Virus record (IMG/VR): IMGVR_UViG_3300020020_000018
Location: 1 to 20,925 of that record
DNA from: a virus
Length of the DNA: 20,925 nucleotides
Direction: 5' to 3' (one strand)
Shown here: positions 5,240 to 20,925 of the stretch, in pieces
Position numbering within the stretch: the stretch's first letter is position 1
How the letters are laid out: every line of letters begins with the position of its first letter
Position numbers and translations under genes: made by a program
The notes under the pieces: generated by a model
The model's input: the letters and a program-made list of their open reading frames with translations, nothing else
What the model was told of the DNA's origin: nothing
Database searches by the model: none

Positions 5240-5590
5240 TCAGCCTTCCTTGTGCAGTGTGATTTCGGCGCCGTGCATGACGCCTACATTCGGGATTTGG
5301 AAGTCAACGGGTGCCACACCCGTGACGTAGGCAAGATCATCCAGGGCGTCTGTGATCAGCTCCAGGTGGGTGTCCAGGAACTTCATCGCATCCGATGGGG
5401 TGCCGCCAGTGATCACGTCGACCAGCCAGCTGGACAGATACGTGCCGGGGGGGCCAGCCGGAGTCCAGCCGGCCCAGCGGACCCAGGCATCGCCCACGTT
5501 CAGCAGCGCGGGCTGGTCATCGTAGCCGGTTATGTCGGCGATCGGGTCGAGCGCAGCAGCGAACGCGGCGCGGTCAGCAGCTAGAGACAT
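5240..5590 (-). CDS. Head-tail joining or tail terminator-like protein (116 aa).
   Basis: The start is coupled to the adaptor stop (TGATG at 5588-5592). It sits between the adaptor and the tube gene. Positional call only. Confidence 0.45.
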   Translation of the reverse strand: MSLAADRAAFAAALDPIADITGYDDQPALLNVGDAWVRWAGWTPAGPPGTYLSSWLVDVITGGTPSDAMKFLDTHLELITDALDDLAYVTGVAPVDFQIPNVGVMHGAEITLHKEG

Positions 5591-6603
5591 CAGCCCACCA
5601 CCAGCTTTCGGTATGGGGCCTCCAGGCGCTTGACCTCAGCGTCCTGGCGCGGGACGAATGAGGGGCTCCCACCGTCGCTGGACTGCTCGACCACACCCAG
5701 GGTGATGCCACGGCGAGCAAAGTTGATCACGACGCGGCGGGCCAGGGCCTCGCGTAGATCGGGAGAGCCGCCCCCACCGGCCAGATAGCCCTCAGCCAGC
5801 AGTCTCTCACCGTCGGACAAGACACGCTGCCAGACCAGGACCTCATATACATCACCAAAGAATGGGCTGCCACCCTCCTCATCTGCACCCAGCCCGACAC
5901 CAGCGGAGGGCGTGTCGGAAATCGGGCCAGTGCCCAGCGCGGTAGCCACGGTGTCCTTGAGGACCCCGTCAACGTGAATTGTCATCACAGCGTGGCCGTG
6001 ATCAACAGCGAGCGCCACATTGTGAAGCGCCTGATCCTGGCCGGACGTGAACACATAGGCCGGGGGCGCGTCACCGTCCAGGCGTCGGAGGTCCAGCCCC
6101 CAGTGGCCGCCAGCGCCAGAGAATCGGATACCTGCATACAACCGGGTGAACAGCCCGTTATTGGAAAAACCGATGACGCGCTGGGTTGTGGTGGCAGAGC
6201 TGGACTTAACGCGCATCAGGATCGTGACCGCGATTTGGTTCCGGGTGAGCTGGAGCGCGTCGCCGCCCACGCTGAGCCAGTCGGTTCCGTCGAATCGAAC
6301 CAGGGTGCGGCCGTCCTGTGTGCGCTTTGTGGGCTGGGCTGAGCCTGTGCCCTGGGTGGCCACGGAGGTCCCGGCTGCGGAGGTCCAGCTGGAGACTGGG
6401 TCACCATCGGCCAGGCCGGAGAGGTCCTCAGCGCGGAACCACAGAGCCAGACCAGACGGAAGATCAACACTAGGGACGCGGCATTTCTTGCTCTGGGCGG
6501 CCGCCTCTGTGGCTATGGCCTGGTTAAGCGCCGCGTCGGAGTAGCGGCCAGCGGGCACACCAATAGATGCCAGGTAATCCTTGACATCCTGTAGCGCACC
6601 CAC
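5590..6603 (-). CDS. Head-to-tail adaptor (gp6-like) with an inserted LamG / concanavalin-A-like domain (337 aa).
   Basis: GTG start with a strong SD (GGGGAAGGGGAG). N-terminus: ALQDVKDYL...SDAALNQAIATEAAA. C-terminus: LREALARRVVINFARR...EVKRLEAPYRKL. Both ends resemble connector/adaptor proteins. Residues about 50-275 (LALWFRAEDLSG..DPVSSWTSAAG..LVRFDGTDWL..VLVWQRVLSDGE) look like LamG_3. Confidence 0.65.
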   Translation of the reverse strand: MGALQDVKDYLASIGVPAGRYSDAALNQAIATEAAAQSKKCRVPSVDLPSGLALWFRAEDLSGLADGDPVSSWTSAAGTSVATQGTGSAQPTKRTQDGRTLVRFDGTDWLSVGGDALQLTRNQIAVTILMRVKSSSATTTQRVIGFSNNGLFTRLYAGIRFSGAGGHWGLDLRRLDGDAPPAYVFTSGQDQALHNVALAVDHGHAVMTIHVDGVLKDTVATALGTGPISDTPSAGVGLGADEEGGSPFFGDVYEVLVWQRVLSDGERLLAEGYLAGGGGSPDLREALARRVVINFARRGITLGVVEQSSDGGSPSFVPRQDAEVKRLEAPYRKLVVG

Positions 6604-7022: not shown

Positions 7023-8315
7023 TTACGGGACCGGGTCCCAAATGATCTTGCGGATGCCGGGAACGTCGATCACTTCCACGACCCGGTAGCCCCAGATGGC
7101 CAGCTCAACACTCTTCACCTGGTACTGGAACTCCAGCCGCTGAGGCACGGACGCGACAGCAAACACCGAAGCCGGGTCGAGCAGGTAGCTGTTGGCCGGA
7201 GCGACCTGGCCACCAGCAGCCAAAGCCCACTCCGGGAAGCCGTCCACGCCGTGGATGTTGAGCTTGGCGAACCGTGGTGCAACTGTGCCGTTTGCGTTCG
7301 TCGGGCCGTAGATCGGGAACAGCGGCCGGTTGGTCGTGTCGATGGCGCCAGCCAGCAGCTTGTAAAGGTCCTGCTGCAACGCCAGGGTGGAGAAGTCGAA
7401 CCCACCGCGGACAAACTGGAGGTCAGCGAAATGGCCACCCAACGCGGCCCCCTGCGCCTGCCCAGTGAGACCGGGTGTCAGCGTGATGGCGGTTACGCCA
7501 CCCTCGCCGTCCAACTCTGTGACGACAGACGCCTCAAGCGCTTCGTTATAGCTCTGGACCATCTTGGCCCAGATGAGCGCGCTGGCGGCTGGGCCGCCCT
7601 GGTCCCATACCTCACGGGTGATTTCCACACGACCTGACACGGCGCCAGGGGTGACAGTCTCACTGGTGGCCACGAATGTCCCGGGCGTGGGGTTCACGTC
7701 CTGGGTGTGAGCCGCCACCAGGCCGCCGTGGCTGGACCACTTCGGAACCACGATGGGCGTGATTTCGTCCAGCGTGCCCTTACGGACTGCCTCCCAGAGG
7801 GGATAACGGAACTGACGCTGGTCCACGTACAGGTCCGGACGCTGAACCGGGACCCCGACCAAGGAAGACACATCGCCGGTCTGGACAGCGAACTGGACAG
7901 GACCGTCCGGCATGTCGGTAGCGGGCGCATTGAACGCGTGAGCCTGAATAAATCCCATAGCCCGCTCATGCGCAGCGGCATCCCCACGGAAGCTGTCGCG
8001 AAGATCACGCGCGAAGTCATGCGTCCCCGCGACCAGTGCGCCGCTTCGGTCGAATCGGTACGGCTCAGGCTCAGCGACCTGAGCGCCGGAGCCAGCAGCA
8101 CCATCGGCCGGGTTGATCACTTCCGGGCCGCCGCCAGCCGGGGCAGGGGCAGGAGGCTGAGCTGGCGCAAAGTGCTGGCCGAGCGCAGCGACAAGCGCGC
8201 CCATGTCGAACTGGGGTGCTGGCGCAGCTGGCGCGGCAGGGGGCTGGGGGGCCACGTATCGAGTGGTGCTGTTCGGCAGCGCGCACTCTTGGCAGTGGCA
8301 TCCTTCTGGGTGCAT
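7023..8315 (-). CDS. Major capsid protein as a nested in-frame product from an internal start (430 aa). Hypothesis.
   Basis: An in-frame ATG at 8315 (residue 575, MHPEGCHCQEC...) is preceded by AGGAAGGA with a 5-nt spacer. Confidence 0.5.
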   Translation of the reverse strand: MHPEGCHCQECALPNSTTRYVAPQPPAAPAAPAPQFDMGALVAALGQHFAPAQPPAPAPAGGGPEVINPADGAAGSGAQVAEPEPYRFDRSGALVAGTHDFARDLRDSFRGDAAAHERAMGFIQAHAFNAPATDMPDGPVQFAVQTGDVSSLVGVPVQRPDLYVDQRQFRYPLWEAVRKGTLDEITPIVVPKWSSHGGLVAAHTQDVNPTPGTFVATSETVTPGAVSGRVEITREVWDQGGPAASALIWAKMVQSYNEALEASVVTELDGEGGVTAITLTPGLTGQAQGAALGGHFADLQFVRGGFDFSTLALQQDLYKLLAGAIDTTNRPLFPIYGPTNANGTVAPRFAKLNIHGVDGFPEWALAAGGQVAPANSYLLDPASVFAVASVPQRLEFQYQVKSVELAIWGYRVVEVIDVPGIRKIIWDPVP

Positions 8316-10037
8316 TTCGTTCCTTCCTGAGTCTGCCTCTGCCAGGACAGCCGAGACACGTGCTGAATCAAACGCCGGGTCAGGCGTAAGACTGATTTCG
8401 GCCAGGTCGTTTCCCTGGCCGGAGTGGTGGACATCGCCCACCAGTGAGAAACGGGCGTCAGACCGGAGCCCGATGGAGAGGCCGTCATAGACGCCGTCAG
8501 CTGCCAGCATCAGCGCACGGTCACCCTCTGGGCCGCGTGCGATCTGGAACGTGACATAGAGGCCGTCCGGCCGATCATCCAGGATCGTGGCCTTACCCAC
8601 AGCCTGAGAACGATCATGCTGGATGTGGAGCTTGATACGCGACGGATCAGCCGGCAGGCGAAGAGAGCCGCGAGCGAACTGATACGTCCGGCCATTCTTC
8701 CGGGCTGTTACCCCATAGGGGACCGCCAGGCCGCTGATCGTGCGCCGCTCTTGATCAACAGAGAACGTGCTGAATACCGCGTCCGTGGCGAAGCTAAATC
8801 CTTGCGCGTCATCAGCGTCAAACGCAATGTTGTGACGCGCCGGCGGTCCACTCTGTTGCGTCTCGAGTGAGCTATCACGCAAAGAGTTTGCGTCACCGGA
8901 CTGTATTGCGGGCTGGGCTGGCATGGGGAACGTGGGCTGCGGGAGGCCCTCGCGGCGCGCGATCGCGTCACGGTCGAAGATTCCCAACTTGACCCCCAGT
9001 GCGTAAGCCTGGAACCGAGAAAGATCATCGGCCCTCAGGAACCCGTTAAAGTCCGCCTCTACGCGGTAGCCGCGCGGCGTGATGTCAGGCATAGAGAGCC
9101 GCTCAGCAATCGCGCTGACGTACATGCCCAGGGTGTCGTTGATCTTGTCAATGCGGCGCTGCTGGCCGTTCTGGTAGGTGCGGCTGGTGGTGCTGACGCC
9201 CAGGTCCTCTGGGTCCACACCCATGGCGGCCGCGATTTCGACCACTGCCTGTTTGCGGCCCTCCACCAGCTGGAGCTGGTTGGGGTCCCACTGGGTGCTG
9301 TGGTAATCCACCACCCCTGGCACGTAGGCGTCCACGCCGTTCTGGCGCGCCTGCTGCCAGTCATCCAGGAAGGTCTCAACGTCAGACTGGTCCGGGTCAG
9401 CCTCTGGGCGCGGGGTGAACCAGCCCTGTGGCCGGGGGCTGTCCGCGTAGCGATCGACAGCAGCGGCCAGCTTCAGCCAGGTGCGGATGGCCCGCGCGCC
9501 AGCACTGAGCACACCCTCAGTGGGAGACTCAAACACGACATAGTCAGCTGGTGGAACCTTGATCAACTTACCGTCGGGCATGGTGACGTGGAGGTAACCG
9601 TCCTGATCAACAGTGGCGCGGGGATCGACCCGCCAGACGTAGGTGGGGAACCGGTTAAAGTTCCGCTCCCGGGTCCACCAGTACGCCTTACCCTCAAACA
9701 GCAGGTCTTCCACGAGCTTGGTCATGGTGACCGATCGGGCACGGTTACGCTCTGGCTGGCTCAGCAGCGTTGAAACATGCTCCACGTTGTCTGTGTCCAG
9801 CAGCCGGAACGGTATGGTTCCGATTTCACCAGCGATCAGGTCGCGGCCTTTCTTGACCGCTGGGACCTGGATGGCCTCACGCCTGGAGACGGCGGCCACG
9901 GGTCCGATCGTGGAACTGTAGGACGGTATGCCGAAGATTTCACTAGGCATTGAGCCCGCGTCGATCTCAAATTGGGGACCACGGCTGTCTGGACGTTCAA
10001 ACCCGAGCCATTCAGCTACGCGCCACCAGAAGCTCAC
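7023..10037 (-). CDS. Portal - prohead protease (S78/HK97-type) - major capsid protein (HK97 fold) fusion ORF (1004 aa).
   Basis: This is one uninterrupted frame. Residues about 1-390 are portal-like (AIQVPAVKKGRDLIAGEIGTIPFRLL, QAVVEIAAAMGVDPEDLGV). Residues about 400-565 are protease-like (LHIQHDRSQAVGKA, DGLYVTFQI, DGLSIGL). Residues about 575-640 form a Pro/Ala-rich linker. Residues about 640-1004 are HK97-type capsid-like. The GTG start has only a weak SD. Confidence 0.85.
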   Translation of the reverse strand: MSFWWRVAEWLGFERPDSRGPQFEIDAGSMPSEIFGIPSYSSTIGPVAAVSRREAIQVPAVKKGRDLIAGEIGTIPFRLLDTDNVEHVSTLLSQPERNRARSVTMTKLVEDLLFEGKAYWWTRERNFNRFPTYVWRVDPRATVDQDGYLHVTMPDGKLIKVPPADYVVFESPTEGVLSAGARAIRTWLKLAAAVDRYADSPRPQGWFTPRPEADPDQSDVETFLDDWQQARQNGVDAYVPGVVDYHSTQWDPNQLQLVEGRKQAVVEIAAAMGVDPEDLGVSTTSRTYQNGQQRRIDKINDTLGMYVSAIAERLSMPDITPRGYRVEADFNGFLRADDLSRFQAYALGVKLGIFDRDAIARREGLPQPTFPMPAQPAIQSGDANSLRDSSLETQQSGPPARHNIAFDADDAQGFSFATDAVFSTFSVDQERRTISGLAVPYGVTARKNGRTYQFARGSLRLPADPSRIKLHIQHDRSQAVGKATILDDRPDGLYVTFQIARGPEGDRALMLAADGVYDGLSIGLRSDARFSLVGDVHHSGQGNDLAEISLTPDPAFDSARVSAVLAEADSGRNEMHPEGCHCQECALPNSTTRYVAPQPPAAPAAPAPQFDMGALVAALGQHFAPAQPPAPAPAGGGPEVINPADGAAGSGAQVAEPEPYRFDRSGALVAGTHDFARDLRDSFRGDAAAHERAMGFIQAHAFNAPATDMPDGPVQFAVQTGDVSSLVGVPVQRPDLYVDQRQFRYPLWEAVRKGTLDEITPIVVPKWSSHGGLVAAHTQDVNPTPGTFVATSETVTPGAVSGRVEITREVWDQGGPAASALIWAKMVQSYNEALEASVVTELDGEGGVTAITLTPGLTGQAQGAALGGHFADLQFVRGGFDFSTLALQQDLYKLLAGAIDTTNRPLFPIYGPTNANGTVAPRFAKLNIHGVDGFPEWALAAGGQVAPANSYLLDPASVFAVASVPQRLEFQYQVKSVELAIWGYRVVEVIDVPGIRKIIWDPVP
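8316..8328 (-). promoter_or_regulatory. Internal Shine-Dalgarno sequence (AGGAAGGA) plus spacer, upstream of the in-frame ATG at 8315.
   Basis: The plus strand reads tccttcct at 8321-8328, and cat at 8313-8315. Confidence 0.5.
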
Positions 10038-10047
10038 GACGCAAACC

Positions 10048-11694
10048 TTATGCGTGGGGTCGCGTTTTGGCGGTAATTAGTTGCAGACGCGCCGGAGGTT
10101 TGGCCGTTCTGGCCAGATTGGCGGCCCCGGCTGCGGCGTAGACCGCGTCAGCGTTGCCCATGCGGCGGGTGAAACGCCAGCCATCCCCCACCGGCAGGCG
10201 CCTGGAGCCGAGCGCGTGCGCGTTCAGCAGCGGGTCATTGCCGTGGATCAGCCCGCGCGCGAGCACCAGCTGAGCAAACCCCTGGCAAACGGCGGGGATT
10301 TCGGCCGACTTGATCTCCTCCATGCGCTTGAGCGTGCGGACATCCACCAGCACGGACGCAGCTGGCCCCCCGGGGAACCAGCACCCGCGCGCGGGCTGGT
10401 ACTGCTCCCAAATCTTGGGCAGGTCCAGCATGCACCTAGCAAGATCATTCCAGGCGCCCACGACGCCCAGCCGGACACGGCCGGAGTCAGTGAGCGCGGC
10501 GGCCGCCAGCGTGGCGTGGTCACCATCCTGGGACACGTCGAAGCAAAAGAACTTGTGAGGCATGGCCATAACGCCCGAGCCGGCAGGATCAGCACACGCG
10601 TTCCACGCCTGGGCTGAGATGGGGCTGTCGATTGCCTCCACCGTCTGGCAGAGGATCTCTGTGCGGAACACTGGCGGGGGATCGGTCCCCATGGCGGTGA
10701 GGATCGCGTCAGGGCTGATCGCGTACCCCAGTCCGGGGCATGCCTGAGCTATCTGGTCCCAGTCGTCCAGCTCGCAGCCCTCCACGCCGGACCACTCGAA
10801 CAGCCCTATGGACGGGTCTGTGCGGTTGATCCCAGACGCTCGCAGCTGGTTAAGCACCACGCTGTCAGCCTCACCGGCGTTCGAGATGGCCACCACCAGG
10901 CCCTGAGCTTTGGCGATGACAGTCTTAGACAGCGCGGACCAGGCCGTCCAGTCCTTCTGTTCGCGCAGCTCGTCCAAGATCATCAGGTCGACGGAGAGCC
11001 CCCGGCCAGCACCCTGCCGGGTGGCAGCGATCCGATACCGGGACCGGTTGAACATGCTCATGCTGGTGTCAGTGTTGCCGCGCTTGACCGAGTCCACCTG
11101 AACCCAGACCTTGTCATGATCTTGGGCCAGCTCCACCGTGGAGGACCAGCTGTTGCGTGCGATGTCCATTGACTGGGCCGCACCCAGCACCACAGAGCCT
11201 GGACGCTTGCACAGCATCCACAGCGTGAGTATCTGGAGAAGTCGAGTCTTGCCGGACTGGCGACCCACCAGCGTGAGCACCGTACGGAACCGGAACCGGC
11301 CCTGATCGTTCATCTCCAGCGCGTGGATCAGCCACCATTTCTGCCAGGGGTACAGCTCGATGCCCAGCTGTTCCTTTGCGAATCGGATTACCTCATACCC
11401 CTTGCTGTTGCCGACGTGGAGCCGCTGGAGTGGCGGGGTGAAGATGCGCGGTTCAGTGAGCCCTTTGATCCCCACTGGCGCAGGCCGGTGCGGAGTCGCG
11501 TCAAATAGCGGGTCCTGGTCTAGATCGGTCCCCCATAGCGCGGTCATGGCGCTGATTCTGACACCGCGCGCAAGCATCTTGCGCCAACGCGGCCTGAGGG
11601 CGTCTCTATTTTGCGCATGATCACAGGGGAGGGGGAACCACTCGGAAGGGGGTGGCGGGGTCCTCTGATTCTGGGAAAAAACCGCGAGACTCAC
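10048..11694 (-). CDS. terL: Terminase large subunit.
   Basis: Walker A-like VGRQSGKT, Walker B-like DLMILDE, a conserved LYPWQKW segment and a C-terminal nuclease-type region. The GTG start at 11694 is uncertain. In-frame ATGs occur about 40 and 50 codons downstream (MLARG..., MTALW...). Confidence 0.85.
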   Translation of the reverse strand: MSLAVFSQNQRTPPPPSEWFPLPCDHAQNRDALRPRWRKMLARGVRISAMTALWGTDLDQDPLFDATPHRPAPVGIKGLTEPRIFTPPLQRLHVGNSKGYEVIRFAKEQLGIELYPWQKWWLIHALEMNDQGRFRFRTVLTLVGRQSGKTRLLQILTLWMLCKRPGSVVLGAAQSMDIARNSWSSTVELAQDHDKVWVQVDSVKRGNTDTSMSMFNRSRYRIAATRQGAGRGLSVDLMILDELREQKDWTAWSALSKTVIAKAQGLVVAISNAGEADSVVLNQLRASGINRTDPSIGLFEWSGVEGCELDDWDQIAQACPGLGYAISPDAILTAMGTDPPPVFRTEILCQTVEAIDSPISAQAWNACADPAGSGVMAMPHKFFCFDVSQDGDHATLAAAALTDSGRVRLGVVGAWNDLARCMLDLPKIWEQYQPARGCWFPGGPAASVLVDVRTLKRMEEIKSAEIPAVCQGFAQLVLARGLIHGNDPLLNAHALGSRRLPVGDGWRFTRRMGNADAVYAAAGAANLARTAKPPARLQLITAKTRPHA

Positions 11695-12137: not shown

Positions 12138-12578
12138 TTACGTCAGCAGCAGGCCCAGGGCTACCACCCCCACCACGAGCATGATCAGTATCACCATGCC
12201 CACGGCGCGGGCTGCCGAGTAGCCCTCGCGCCGCTGCTCTGGCCAGTCTCGCGAGACCTCCACGCCCGCTGAGACCAGCTCCCCAGGGGCCATGATCCAG
12301 TCGCCATCCTCGCCGGAGTCATCCTGGACGATGTACGCGCCGCTGGCCTGGCCGAGCGCCAGCATCTCGGCCTCCTCTTCGTCGGTAAGCCCACGCCTTG
12401 CGTGCATCTCTTCCAGGTAATACAACCGATCAATGGTGACCTGGACCGCTGCAAAGAGGGTGTTGAACCGAAGCGCTATCTCCTCATCGCGCGGGCCCCG
12501 ATCGCGTGGGCTCATGTGGCTCAGCGGGTGCGTGACGGTCCAGTCCTGTCTCTGTGCCCAGCGTCGGAGCGCGCGCAT
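12138..12578 (-). CDS. Tail-anchored membrane protein (146 aa), function unknown.
   Basis: The ATG is coupled to the upstream stop (TGATG at 12576-12580). The only hydrophobic segment is C-terminal (VGMVILIMLVVGVVALGLLL). The middle of the protein is acidic. Confidence 0.6.
   Translation of the reverse strand: MRALRRWAQRQDWTVTHPLSHMSPRDRGPRDEEIALRFNTLFAAVQVTIDRLYYLEEMHARRGLTDEEEAEMLALGQASGAYIVQDDSGEDGDWIMAPGELVSAGVEVSRDWPEQRREGYSAARAVGMVILIMLVVGVVALGLLLT
12458..12487. repeat. 30-bp perfect direct repeat, copy 1 (inside the 146-aa gene).
   Basis: GGGTGTTGAACCGAAGCGCTATCTCCTCAT is identical to 17480-17509. On the minus strand it encodes EEIALRFNT in frame. Confidence 0.95.
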
Positions 12579-13267
12579 CAGTAGACCTTGTCCACTGCGT
12601 AGGTGGCCTCAGCGTGGGTGAAGCCCTCGCCGTACTTAGACTCCAGCTGGTCCAGCAGCTCAGCCTTGGAGAAGTGCCCGCTGTCCAGGTACGACTCAGC
12701 AGCCTCCACGGCCTCCGCTTTGTAATCGGCTTTGACGTGATCAATTGCGAACTGGGCGTCTTTCTTGGTGAAGCCCTCACCGTACTCAGATTTGAGCTGG
12801 TCCAGCAGCCCCTGCTTGGAGAAGTGCCCGCTGTCCAGGTACGACTCAGCAGCCTCCACGGCTTCCTTCTGGGCCCTGGTCAGCGTGGGCGTGGGCTTTG
12901 GCTCGGCCGGGGCCGCCGTGGCGCTGCCAGACGCCTCTGGTAAGGTGCTCGACCCCTGGCCACGGTCGGCATCGTCACCAGGCTCCGCTGAGTGATAGCC
13001 GGTGTCCTGAGTGAACGCCCCTGATTCCTGCTCAACCGGGGAGCTGCCTACGGCATAGCCCAAGGCACAGCCGATCACAAACACCACGATCAGGACCAGC
13101 CAGCCGAACCGCTTGTCCTTCACGCGGGGCCTCTTCGGCTGGGGGCCTGTCCACTGCTGCTGTTCGGTCAGGTGTTCCTGCCCTGCCGGTGGGTAGGGGT
13201 GCTCGAATCCAGGCGGCGGGTTAAACATGGGGTTGAACATGGGTTGATCTTGCGACGGGTTAGACAC
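12578..13267 (-). CDS. Membrane-anchored or lipoprotein with two Ltp-like repeats (superinfection-exclusion candidate, 229 aa).
   Basis: Two about 45-aa repeats (AVEAAESYLDSGHFSK..LLDQL.S.YGEGFT...A.[FY]A[IV]D.V) match the pattern of the Ltp 'host cell surface-exposed lipoprotein' repeat as I recall it. They are preceded by a hydrophobic segment ending in a lipobox-like VIGC, and by a Pro-rich 55-aa N-terminus. GTG start at 13267; alternative ATG at 13240. Confidence 0.7.
   Translation of the reverse strand: MSNPSQDQPMFNPMFNPPPGFEHPYPPAGQEHLTEQQQWTGPQPKRPRVKDKRFGWLVLIVVFVIGCALGYAVGSSPVEQESGAFTQDTGYHSAEPGDDADRGQGSSTLPEASGSATAAPAEPKPTPTLTRAQKEAVEAAESYLDSGHFSKQGLLDQLKSEYGEGFTKKDAQFAIDHVKADYKAEAVEAAESYLDSGHFSKAELLDQLESKYGEGFTHAEATYAVDKVY
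12665..12862. repeat. Tandem duplication with a 150-bp period. It includes 48-bp perfect copies at 12665-12712 and 12815-12862.
   Basis: CTTGGAGAAGTGCCCGCTGTCCAGGTACGACTCAGCAGCCTCCACGGC occurs twice. These copies correspond to the two Ltp-like protein repeats. Confidence 0.9.
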
Positions 13268-16370: not shown

Positions 16371-17564
16371 TCAGATTTTTGGCGTGTCGACCAGGGGCTG
16401 GGTGATCGCGACAGAGGCGCGGACCAGGTTGTGGTCAGAGGCGTGGGGCACATATTCAGGCTGCCCAGTGATCACCAGGGTGCCTGTGTACGGGTCAGCC
16501 ACCTTGCTGGTCAGAACGTCGTCAATCCAGATTCCGTCACGCTTGGTGGCGGTCCAGCCGTTGCGGCTGTTCCGGCTGTCGCCTTCCATTTCAGCGTCTG
16601 TGAGCCGGGAGCGGAGGTCACGGTAGCCAGCAGCGGCGAGGACCTGGCGTACAGGATCGAGCACGCCGCTGGGGCCCTGGGCACTGTTGAAGTCACCCAT
16701 GATCAGCACACGCTGATTGTCGGGCAGGGCCGAGAGGACTAGCGCGATCTCTTTTGCCTGGGCCAGTCTCAGCGCGGCCTCACCCGGCATGTTGACGGCC
16801 AGGTGGGTGGAGATGAACCAGGCGTCACCACCAGTGGCCACAGACTGGAGCCGGACACACGTCAGCGGCCGCGTCGACGGGAACCCTGGCAGTGCCGTGC
16901 TCTTGAGCTTGAACTCACGGTGATCAATAGCCACCCACTTGTCAGCCCGCCAGATGATTTTGGATGTGCCCGAGCCCCAGAAATTCCAGTTAGGGCCGAG
17001 CCCGTGGGTGAGGTCAGCGGCCAGCGCAGCATTGCACTCTTGGACACCCAGCACGCTGGGGGCCACATCGTTGATCACCCGGACCAGCTGGGGGAGCCGC
17101 CTGGACCACAGCCGCTCGGGGTGGAGCAAGTCGTCAGCTGACTTGTGGCGAATGTTGAACGACGCCGCTCGGACCTTGGTGGTGGTGACGGCTGGGGGCA
17201 CGATCGGGGCCTCTGTTCCGTAGCTGATATGGATATGGTCGTTGTGTGGGTCGCTGCCGTTATAGGTGCGGACTCCCTCAGCGGCCCGGGCCACGGACCA
17301 GATGCGGCGCCTGGTGATGATGTACGTGGCTCCCAGACGCTTAGCGTTGAGCTTGAACCAGGCCAGCATCTCGTCGTGGTGCGCTGCGCTGTTGTCGTAC
17401 AGCCAGAAGTCAGCCGCCAGGTCCCCAGACATGTCGTGTCCCGGGTCGCCGTCCGCGTGGCCCCGGTACGTACCTATCTGGGTGTTGAACCGAAGCGCTA
17501 TCTCCTCATTTGCCTTGACCACCCAGGACGGCCACGGCCGATAGTTGTCGATGTACAGTCCCAT
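16371..17564 (-). CDS. Endolysin candidate: N-terminal Zn-peptidase-like domain fused to an endonuclease/exonuclease/phosphatase (EEP) domain.
   Basis: It lies directly downstream of the holin (stop 17567, ATG 17564). N-terminus: GHADGD..GHDMSGDLAADFW...PHNDHIHISYG, LAS/M15-like and tentative. C-terminus has ordered EEP motifs: SFNIR, GVQECN, ISTHL, IMGDFN, WIDDV, ASDHNLV. Confidence 0.75.
   Translation of the reverse strand: MGLYIDNYRPWPSWVVKANEEIALRFNTQIGTYRGHADGDPGHDMSGDLAADFWLYDNSAAHHDEMLAWFKLNAKRLGATYIITRRRIWSVARAAEGVRTYNGSDPHNDHIHISYGTEAPIVPPAVTTTKVRAASFNIRHKSADDLLHPERLWSRRLPQLVRVINDVAPSVLGVQECNAALAADLTHGLGPNWNFWGSGTSKIIWRADKWVAIDHREFKLKSTALPGFPSTRPLTCVRLQSVATGGDAWFISTHLAVNMPGEAALRLAQAKEIALVLSALPDNQRVLIMGDFNSAQGPSGVLDPVRQVLAAAGYRDLRSRLTDAEMEGDSRNSRNGWTATKRDGIWIDDVLTSKVADPYTGTLVITGQPEYVPHASDHNLVRASVAITQPLVDTPKI
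17480..17509. repeat. 30-bp perfect direct repeat, copy 2 (inside the endolysin gene).
   Basis: Identical to 12458-12487. It encodes EEIALRFNT (endolysin residues 20-28) in the same reading frame. Confidence 0.95.
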
Positions 17565-19767: not shown

Positions 19768-20888
19768 GATCCCACCAGCCTCACCGTGAGGGCCTCAGCG
19801 CCGCCACCAGCCTGGTGGGGCAGCGTGTAGCCGGTGACCCGGCCCAGGGCACCAGCCAGCTGGAGACGGGCACTGGTGACCGCCACAGCATCGCCCAGCC
19901 TCAGGGCTGGGTGGGGCAGTATCTCGATCGATACTGACCGATTGTTATCGGCCCTCAGGTTCCGTTTCCTGGTCGCGGCCGCCGCCGCCACCATGGCCTG
20001 GGTGGTCATCAGCGGAGACTCGTACCCCACGGGAACCAGGTAGGGGCTGAACGGGCCGCCGTACCGGTAGGGGCTGGTCAGGTCTGTGTCATAGCTGGTG
20101 GCCACAATCTCCTGGCCTGCCAGGCCGCCAGCGGTGTCCGGGTACGAGCCGCGGGCCACCACAGCATTGAACTGGCCGTCTCGGGTAAGGCCAGTGGTGA
20201 ACCGCTGAGCGTTCAGCTTGTCGGAGACAGCCAGGTCCGCGCTGGTGGGGTCGTCTGGCACGGGCGTGACTCTCAGGACGCCGTCGACGGTAACCTCAGC
20301 CTGAGCTGGCCAAGCGTCCAGGACGGCCGCCACGTCATCCAGCCGGTTGTCTGACCAGCTGGTCCCAGCGGGCACGGTGCGATCAGCTGGTGCGGCTGTG
20401 AGGTCCACCGTGAGCCCTGGCTCGACCAGAGCTCTGATCACTGATCCCATGGTCGCGCCAGCCTTGGGCTGGTATTCCGCGACCAGCTCAGCCTCATTCA
20501 CCAGGTACAGCAGGCCAGCACACTGAACACTGACCGTGTCGCCGGAGTCGTCTGGGTCGACGCTGTGGATCAGGAATTGGCCACGGGTCAACCACTCGAC
20601 TTCCTCACCCACCAGTGAGACGCCCACCTGGGCCACGATCCGCTGGCCCCAGATGCCCAGCGGATGGTCATAGGAACTGGGCACCCAGGAGACGCCACGG
20701 TCCAGGATCGGAACACGAAAGGTCAGCTGCTCGGGGACCCTCAGGCTGGCGTCACCTTCCTCCACCACGTCCACGCCTGGAATGTCGTCAGCCAGCAGCT
20801 CACCCGAGCGCACCGATAGCAGCCGGTTGTGGACCTTGTAACTGTGGCCGGAGAGTATCTCGGCCAGCTGGCTGGTGATCGTGATCAT
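19764..20888 (-). CDS. Minor tail protein (Tal / baseplate-hub-like by position, 374 aa).
   Basis: The ATG at 20888 corresponds to position 90 of the circle, 2 nt after the stop of the 93..929 gene. It follows the Dit-like gene. Confidence 0.55.
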   Translation of the reverse strand: MITITSQLAEILSGHSYKVHNRLLSVRSGELLADDIPGVDVVEEGDASLRVPEQLTFRVPILDRGVSWVPSSYDHPLGIWGQRIVAQVGVSLVGEEVEWLTRGQFLIHSVDPDDSGDTVSVQCAGLLYLVNEAELVAEYQPKAGATMGSVIRALVEPGLTVDLTAAPADRTVPAGTSWSDNRLDDVAAVLDAWPAQAEVTVDGVLRVTPVPDDPTSADLAVSDKLNAQRFTTGLTRDGQFNAVVARGSYPDTAGGLAGQEIVATSYDTDLTSPYRYGGPFSPYLVPVGYESPLMTTQAMVAAAAATRKRNLRADNNRSVSIEILPHPALRLGDAVAVTSARLQLAGALGRVTGYTLPHQAGGGAEALTVRLVGS

Positions 20889-20925
20889 GGTCAGGACCAG
20901 TCAGCTACGGCGGCCGCCAGCATGG
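20799..20925. repeat. Terminal overlap, copy B (identical to 1-127).
   Basis: Same comparison as copy A. The 127-nt length is what an assembler k-mer overlap would leave, but that origin is inference. Confidence 0.95.

Follow-up and report, generated by a model that had tools for sequence, protein, structure and literature searches.

A portal, protease and capsid joined in one reading frame of a small virus genome, with a conserved candidate internal start for the capsid precursor

The stretch of DNA analysed here, positions 1 to 20,925 of the IMG/VR virus record IMGVR_UViG_3300020020_000018 (20,925 nucleotides (nt) in all, hereafter the window), carries on its minus strand one open reading frame (ORF) of 1004 codons plus stop (7023-10037; stop codon 7023-7025), in which a portal, an S78-type prohead protease, a pro-region and an HK97-fold major capsid domain follow one another in a predicted polyprotein of 108.7 kDa. 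This gene is a variant of the protease-scaffold-capsid fusions of small-genome siphoviruses, and the presence of the portal in the same frame is its distinguishing feature. A ribosome-binding site and start codon located inside the ORF, just past the protease domain, very probably allow a separate and much more abundant shell protein to be made. The explanation that we consider best, and hold to be probable, is that the head genes occupy a single ORF that is read from two starts, with the tether to the portal being tolerated, possibly useful and not required. The arrangement bears on two long-standing questions, namely how each tailed-phage head comes to have one portal and how compact genomes yield structural proteins in unequal amounts.

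Domain content and integrity of the reading frame

An earlier note on this DNA, made from its letters, had described a single uninterrupted frame at 7023-10037; the coordinates and the length of 1004 amino acids (aa) are right, and the strand, which it left unstated, is minus. By base composition, the probability of 1004 open codons is approximately 1.7e-12 per start position. To delimit the domains, sequence profiles were combined with an AlphaFold2 model built on the family alignment, which is confident over aa 50-370, 425-555 and 660-1004 and has low confidence in the linkers at aa 377-423 and 561-656.

The HK97-family portal domain covers aa 1-366 (8940-10037, minus) and is recognized by both sequence and fold. 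Pfam Phage_portal (PF04860) matches aa 60-363 (E 1.4e-29; 103.7 bits against a curated cut-off of 39.1) and also matches all 38 aligned family members, while the NCBIfam portal equivalog TIGR01537 scores 48.3 bits, under its stricter cut-off of 112. PHROG portal families match aa 42-372, and the modelled fold retrieves PDB entry 3kdr in Foldseek (E 1.8e-17; target TM-score (TMt) 0.74-0.76), together with the HK97 portal (8fql/8cez) and the portal of a gene transfer agent (GTA; 6toa). In relatives with two genes, the portal gene terminates at about aa 366-385. The junction linker that follows in the window (aa 367-423; 8769-8939, minus) is translated in frame, is variable in sequence and length across the family, and is predicted to be disordered, with a predicted local distance difference test (pLDDT) score below 50 over aa 377-423.

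The S78 (HK97 gp4-type) prohead serine protease domain occupies aa 424-566 (8340-8768, minus). In the window protein itself, Pfam Peptidase_S78 (PF04586) is marginal (aa 428-568; 19.7 bits against a cut-off of 21) and the protease model TIGR01543 reaches 39.1 bits against a cut-off of 59. Peptidase_S78 matches 37 of the 38 aligned family members at E<=1e-3 (best 2.9e-13), and PHROG 80, 'head maturation protease', matches aa 425-570 of the window protein with E 3.3e-10. His474 and Ser521, which the analogy to HK97 gp4 leads us to regard as the putative catalytic pair, do not vary among 38 sequences that are 42-76% identical. By fold, a fragment of an HK97-family prohead protease appears at rank 43 in BFVD (TMt 0.72), for a domain that is modelled confidently over aa 425-555.

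Beyond the protease lies a Pro/Ala-rich segment (aa 575-656; 8070-8315, minus) that is mostly disordered in prediction, with a short helix at aa 612-623. We regard it as a putative pro-region of the capsid precursor that would, by analogy, take the position of a scaffold or delta domain, the label 'scaffold' being borrowed from PMC7302621. Near its beginning is the Cys/His cluster CHCQEC (aa 580-585; 8283-8300, minus), a variant of a CxxC..H..C motif that follows the internal methionine in 40 of 101 fused ORFs. Relatives in the window's clade (including L073, L074, L076 and L079) have the spacing C-x2-C-x4-H-x4-C as in CCHC zinc knuckles, for example MECQICGSHDHTAQAC; the window's own variant after the internal methionine reads MHPEGCHCQEC (aa 575-585; 8283-8315, minus).

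The major capsid domain (aa 657-1004; 7026-8069, minus; about 37 kDa) starts near a conserved E-x-PYRFD motif. No Pfam capsid family matches the window protein, and 2 of the 38 family members match Phage_capsid_4. PHROG 2263, 'major head protein' (551 positions), spans aa 413-998 with E 1.3e-44, and this family is itself a protease-capsid fusion. In Foldseek the model of aa 660-1004, which includes a spine-like helix at aa 817-844, matches the capsid structures 9d9x (Bxb1), 8eck (Cozz), and 8fqk and 1ohg (HK97) with E values of 1e-8 to 1e-9. A sequence search of the PDB with the protease-capsid part alone found nothing; a profile of the family gave one weak match (E 0.038), in the protease region, to the 516-aa 'major capsid protein' chain 9sz9, and the entries 9sz9 and 9sza may represent a solved protease-capsid fusion. 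Taken together, the Pfam, PHROG and fold matches bear out the domain order that the earlier note had read from motifs, namely portal, protease, a Pro/Ala-rich linker with the CHCQEC cluster, and an HK97-fold capsid. Of the three Pfam families it expected in that order, Phage_portal is found above its cut-off, Peptidase_S78 falls just under its own, and Phage_capsid does not match.

When the protein was used as query, 761 relatives were recovered with E<=1e-10. Nearly all of the 120 best are 920-1058 aa in length and 40-75% identical, and among them are chromosomal genes that carry the name 'phage portal protein' or 'prohead protease' in Kribbella, Nocardioides, Micromonospora and Pseudonocardia; because these names are given to 1000-aa proteins, annotation pipelines miss the capsid gene. 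Similarity is present at the protein level only, since the ORF, compared as DNA in distant mode with 50,697 phage records, gave no match. Among 151 loci fetched from genomes and viral contigs, approximately 110 have one uninterrupted ORF, and the single frame is kept at 35-81% identity in more than 100 independent genomes or contigs, mostly of Actinomycetota, that come from different projects and technologies. Across the family, GC content at third codon positions (GC3) is 0.83 through the portal/protease linker, compared with 0.89 and 0.88 in the flanking domains. Since the frame is open in more than 100 assemblies and the GC3 periodicity crosses the junction, an assembly artefact is excluded for the family. 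The idea that an assembly or sequencing indel hides a stop and start between genes, or that the gene is decaying, would agree with the small junction indels by which two-gene relatives differ from fused ones, and with a chromosomal copy that is broken into many frames. Against this idea stand not only the conserved frame and the periodicity across the junction but also the conservation of all domains and the invariance of catalytic-type residues, and we give it next to no credence. A hidden frameshift or stop, or a lack of portal or protease homology, had been named in advance as evidence against a true fusion; the family frames are open, GC3 is continuous and both homologies were found.

Several of these loci merit separate mention. 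The broken copy, in Micromonospora sp. M12 (L071, on a 7.6-Mb contig), lies in at least 9 reading-frame pieces and represents either a decayed prophage copy or long-read indel errors. In Kribbella jiaozuonensis NEAU-THZ27, two scaffolds (L001 and L057) carry the element and its flanks with 100% identity over the 22.9 kb fetched, at a 50-bp offset, which reflects either a large recent duplication or a duplication in the assembly; comparison of the two copies was uninformative as to the ends of the element, as they are identical across the entire 22.9 kb. Three loci (L014, L031 and L049) come from metagenome-assembled genomes (MAGs) labelled Chloroflexota, Deferrimicrobiaceae and Paracoccus, and these short contigs are probably mis-binned phage, given that the distribution is otherwise actinobacterial.

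A candidate internal start for the capsid precursor

The full-length ORF begins at a GTG (10035-10037, minus) that sits 10 nt past the terminase stop, and close homologues begin at the same residue. Its Shine-Dalgarno (SD) sequence, AAGG, forms an anti-SD duplex of -3.8 kcal/mol, confirming the weak ribosome-binding site reported in the earlier note. Weak initiation signals are found at this position throughout the family, with a median SD duplex of -2.1 to -4.2 kcal/mol and GTG or TTG at about two-thirds of the starts.

The internal site is of a different kind. The codon of Met575 (8313-8315, minus), the proposed start of a 430-aa, 45.2-kDa capsid precursor, is the sole in-frame ATG with a strong SD in the ORF; it follows the sequence AGGAAGGA (8321-8328, minus; within codons 571-573) after a 5-nt spacer, acgaa. 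This SD had been described as near-ideal at a spacing of 5 nt, and while the spacing is correct, the duplex energy of -8.1 kcal/mol is better described as good.

Conservation of the site is strong. Despite the hypervariability of the linker that follows the protease, the alignment column of Met575 holds ATG in 83 and GTG in 8 of 99 ORFs, and in most of the exceptions the start codon is displaced by 1-3 codons. An SD duplex of -8 kcal/mol or stronger is present at 79% of the conserved internal sites, compared with 4% of 5040 other in-frame start-type codons. When all alignment columns were scanned for a start codon with an SD, the Met575 site was recovered in 85 of 101 distinct ORFs and the runner-up in 27 of 101. 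The same kind of site was sought at the N-terminus of the protease, and no conserved second nested start was found there in the fused ORFs (15 of 53, at about residue 401). The SD core occurs 4-10 nt before the start in all three codon phases (38, 24 and 33 ORFs) and encodes 85 different hexapeptides, which indicates that the conserved entity is a nucleotide motif and not a peptide. Across the family, GC3 drops to 0.65 solely in the 12 codons that precede the internal start, and the 50-nt folding energy there is -11.0 kcal/mol compared with -16.9 kcal/mol in the flanks, with the weaker structure seen in 91 of 96 ORFs. With a median SD duplex of -8.65 kcal/mol and an ATG in 85 of 96 ORFs, the internal site outscores the ORF's own start in 87 of the 96.

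These features, which support the nested-gene arrangement suggested in the earlier note, are complemented by one informative relative. In L040 the module is split into a portal-protease gene and a capsid gene in different frames, and the capsid gene begins at the homologous SD and ATG; L051 seems to resemble L040, and the same nested start is seen in L046, a divergent triple fusion. From such sequence features we infer both the use of the two starts and the ratio of their products.

A different scenario would use the 5' start alone, with self-cleavage giving equimolar products, surplus portal and protease being degraded, and the purine-rich internal motif acting as a pause or linker feature. 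The frame is indeed open throughout, the protease domain looks intact, and about 5% of the family has no recognisable internal start. This scenario leaves unexplained why a start codon should be conserved 4-10 nt past the motif within a hypervariable linker, why the site coincides with an mRNA-structure minimum and a GC3 collapse typical of initiation regions, and why L040 uses it as a gene start. In addition, equimolar output would waste approximately 20 or more portals and proteases for each one used. We find translation from the 5' start alone very unlikely.

Fused and split relatives and the role of the tether

The relatives of the window gene occur in more than one state. In approximately 25 loci the portal and the protease-capsid fusion are encoded separately, in different frames, and a strong SD lies at their overlapping stop/start junction; counted as distinct sequences, 101 are fused and 24 are not. 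In a neighbour-joining (NJ) tree of the portal domain, fused and split forms are intermingled, with a minimum of 11 Fitch changes and with sister pairs of differing state, and the members of such pairs differ by small indels or insertions in the junction linker. For instance, L093, a close relative of L075, has an insert of about 70 additional coding aa at the portal/protease junction (1885-2100 of that locus; MTTTTPESRGRIAYTAYGRKVRF...), and the gene is split there.

The nested SD with ATG or GTG is kept in all 21 two-gene relatives examined, 11-16 residues past the 'ARV' motif of the protease. Eight cultured phages with a gene annotated as a 'major capsid and protease fusion protein' type were also examined. 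An ATG with an SD is present at the same place after the protease in five of them (Kels, Maggie, Atraxa, JRok and Pseudomonas phage Hadban), and no nested ATG and SD was found after the protease in the other three (Emperor, EricDab and phiExGM16). Judged from the sequences, the nested start is older than the portal fusion, since it is present in the two-gene relatives and in several cultured phages. The nested start appears to apply to the whole class of protease-capsid fusions, including the cultured Maggie, Kels, Atraxa, JRok and Hadban, whose annotations list a single product for the fusion gene. In Gordonia phage Emperor gene 10 (L153) and EricDab gene 9 (L157), the annotated starts lie about 116-120 codons upstream of a better SD and ATG just before the protease, and the extra N-terminal part in Emperor resembles a membrane segment; these annotated starts may be too long, or the genes may hold another nested pair.

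The two-start explanation that we prefer would operate as follows. Weak initiation at the GTG (10037) would produce little of the 108.7-kDa polyprotein, with its portal, linker, S78 protease, pro-region and capsid, while the strong internal site (SD 8328-8321, ATG 8315) would produce much of the 45.2-kDa capsid precursor, consisting of the pro-region and the HK97-fold domain. The two initiation strengths would thus fix the ratio of the low-copy portal and protease to the high-copy shell subunit. After assembly, the protease (His474/Ser521) would cut the disordered linkers to free a portal of about 41 kDa, and removal of the pro-region would leave a mature capsid protein of about 37 kDa, with the protease itself being destroyed. 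In evolutionary terms, the nested capsid start would have been inherited from an older protease-capsid fusion gene, and the portal would have been joined to it through small indels at an overlapping stop/start junction, an event that may have been repeated or reversed many times. It should be noted that we infer every cleavage event and the assembly pathway, and that the ratio of 12:400 given in the earlier note presumes a T=7 head, whereas a genome of 20.8 kb suggests a smaller shell.

A different role for the tether is conceivable, in which the covalent polyprotein is the nucleation seed of the head: twelve chains would form the portal ring, the tethered capsid domains would recruit the first capsomers, and proteases would be packaged at a fixed dose. 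The nested start would be retained, and the fusion would be adaptive and mechanistically required where present. The predominance of the fused state (101 versus 24 distinct sequences) is consistent with this, as is the fact that most fused ORFs have no conserved protease start, so that the protease would be made only in attachment to the portal. The topology is feasible as well, because in HK97 the N-terminal scaffold domain of the capsid protein is located in the interior of the procapsid, facing inward, and is in contact with the portal wing (PMC10275583), and disordered linkers of about 50 and 80-95 aa would give the chain sufficient reach. However, changes between the fused and split states number at least about 11 and occur between close sisters, so that neither state is fixed; in two-gene relatives and cultured phages, assembly proceeds with a portal encoded on its own; and 12 tethered capsid domains cannot map symmetrically onto the 5 hexons around the portal vertex. 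We therefore regard an obligate tether as unlikely. The related proposal of a self-contained head seed, in which growth would proceed only from the portal, each head would receive one portal and a fixed dose of protease, and later self-cleavage would release the parts, is similarly doubtful; if true, it would constitute a natural covalent version of the long-postulated portal-nucleated assembly, in a minimal head cassette of one ORF and two starts. The repeated fusion and splitting of the portal junction (at least about 11 times) suggests instead that the tether is tolerated and probably not essential.

Several observations weigh against reading the ORF from two starts with a dispensable tether. 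An SD of about -8 kcal/mol is good and not exceptional, and if start codons are ignored, 16 other codon positions of 893 in the window ORF equal or better it. About 5 of the 101 fused ORFs have no start codon with an SD near the Met575 column, and those genomes would therefore require another source of capsid protein. The pro-region is mostly disordered in prediction, in contrast to HK97 with its coiled-coil scaffold domain. In the window, the 10-nt gap would allow translational coupling to the terminase, and SD strength alone may underrate the upstream start. Finally, the count of 11 changes comes from a quickly built NJ tree, and sequencing indels could account for some of the split or fused calls in MAGs. 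Two further candidate arguments were set aside. The rank of SD energy over all codon positions does not discriminate (the window site is number 17 of 893), as the signal needs the start codon too, and coupling to the terminase was rejected as a general feature, as the gap in the family ranges from 7 to 128 nt.

The presence of a link from portal through protease to capsid in more than 100 natural genomes implies that such a covalent connection is compatible with assembly. A natural fusion offers a simple test of portal nucleation, with the tether either cut or kept, and the conserved nested capsid start represents a concrete, testable answer to the stoichiometry problem. A head module contained in one ORF could also serve in building minimal capsids.

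Genome context and comparison with known head systems

The window has a 127-bp direct repeat at its ends (1-127 and 20799-20925), reflecting either a circular assembly or a terminally redundant genome, and on account of this repeat we take the window to be a complete genome of about 20.8 kb. It is a small siphovirus-type genome whose host is probably an actinobacterium. Its genes include a primase-polymerase, a helicase, an Ltp-like protein, the terminase, the fusion ORF, a major tail protein, a tape measure protein and tail proteins; no second portal, protease, scaffold or capsid gene was found in the window. The large terminase gene (10048-11694, minus) lies immediately upstream of the fusion ORF, and the terminase precedes the fusion gene in 101 of the 151 related loci. 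Three neighbouring genes deserve comment. The Ltp-like gene (12578-13267, minus) encodes two Ltp-type lipoprotein repeats (PF07553, E 1e-40; PHROG 'superinfection exclusion'), which are typical of temperate phages, although no integrase was found in the window. Downstream of the fusion, 5590-6603 (minus) encodes a 337-aa virion protein with a Laminin_G_3 (lectin-like) domain. At the position of the lysis gene, a 397-aa ORF (16371-17564, minus) has an Endonuclease/Exonuclease/phosphatase domain and no recognisable lysin domain.

Fusions of protease and capsid are known from several groups of actinophages, as the earlier note had suggested for very small genomes. They have been reported from the Arthrobacter clusters AM, AU and AN as well as from RRH1 (Klyczek 2017, PMC5513430), and a 'protease-scaffold-capsid fusion' has been described as a common feature of small-genome siphoviruses (Jacobs-Sera 2020, PMC7302621). 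The available text of these two articles places protease-(scaffold)-capsid fusions in Arthrobacter clusters AN, AX and FE, Microbacterium cluster EE, clusters CW and DM of Gordonia, as well as Rhodococcus RRH1, and contains no mention of a nested start. As in the window, an S78 protease, a linker or pro-region and an HK97-fold capsid are encoded in one ORF after the portal and terminase, in genomes of 15-21 kb. The difference lies in the portal, which is a separate gene in all of these cultured phages and is in frame in the window and in over 100 of its relatives from uncultured sources or prophages. The cultured phages are only about 30% identical to the window protein; no phage record covers >=80% of the query, and none of the top BFVD hits spans all three domains. 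In the literature searched, we found no account of a portal-protease or portal-protease-capsid gene, nor of internal initiation at a nested capsid start in capsid-protease fusions. This agrees with the earlier note, which knew of no described fusion that includes the portal, but such proteins sit unremarked in public databases under names such as 'phage portal protein'.

Fusion of head genes to their neighbours is not confined to this class. Portal-MuF fusions in Microbacterium clusters EA and EB and a MuF-protease fusion in cluster EG (PMC7302621) similarly illustrate that a portal or protease gene can be fused in frame to an adjacent head gene; as described there, neither the major capsid protein nor a nested start forms part of any of these fusions. 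HK97 itself has the same three folds in the same order as the window ORF, in three separate genes encoding the portal (gp3), the protease (gp4) and the capsid protein (gp5). Like the predicted capsid precursor of the window, the HK97 capsid protein bears its own removable N-terminal region, which in HK97 is a coiled-coil scaffold domain of 103 residues and in the window would be a mostly disordered segment of about 80 residues.

The closest parallel in logic is found in the in-frame nested head genes of the lambda C/Nu3 type, to which Mu I/Z and herpesvirus UL26/UL26.5 also belong. In these systems a long, rare product bearing the protease is accompanied by a short, abundant product from an internal in-frame start, the shared C-terminal part targets both to the procapsid, and initiation determines the ratio, as we propose for the window. 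Beyond the fold class of the protease, the lambda genes have no sequence relationship to the window ORF. The shared part also differs: in the lambda type it is the scaffold, with capsid and portal encoded by separate genes, whereas in the window it would be the capsid protein with its pro-region, and the long product would add the portal.

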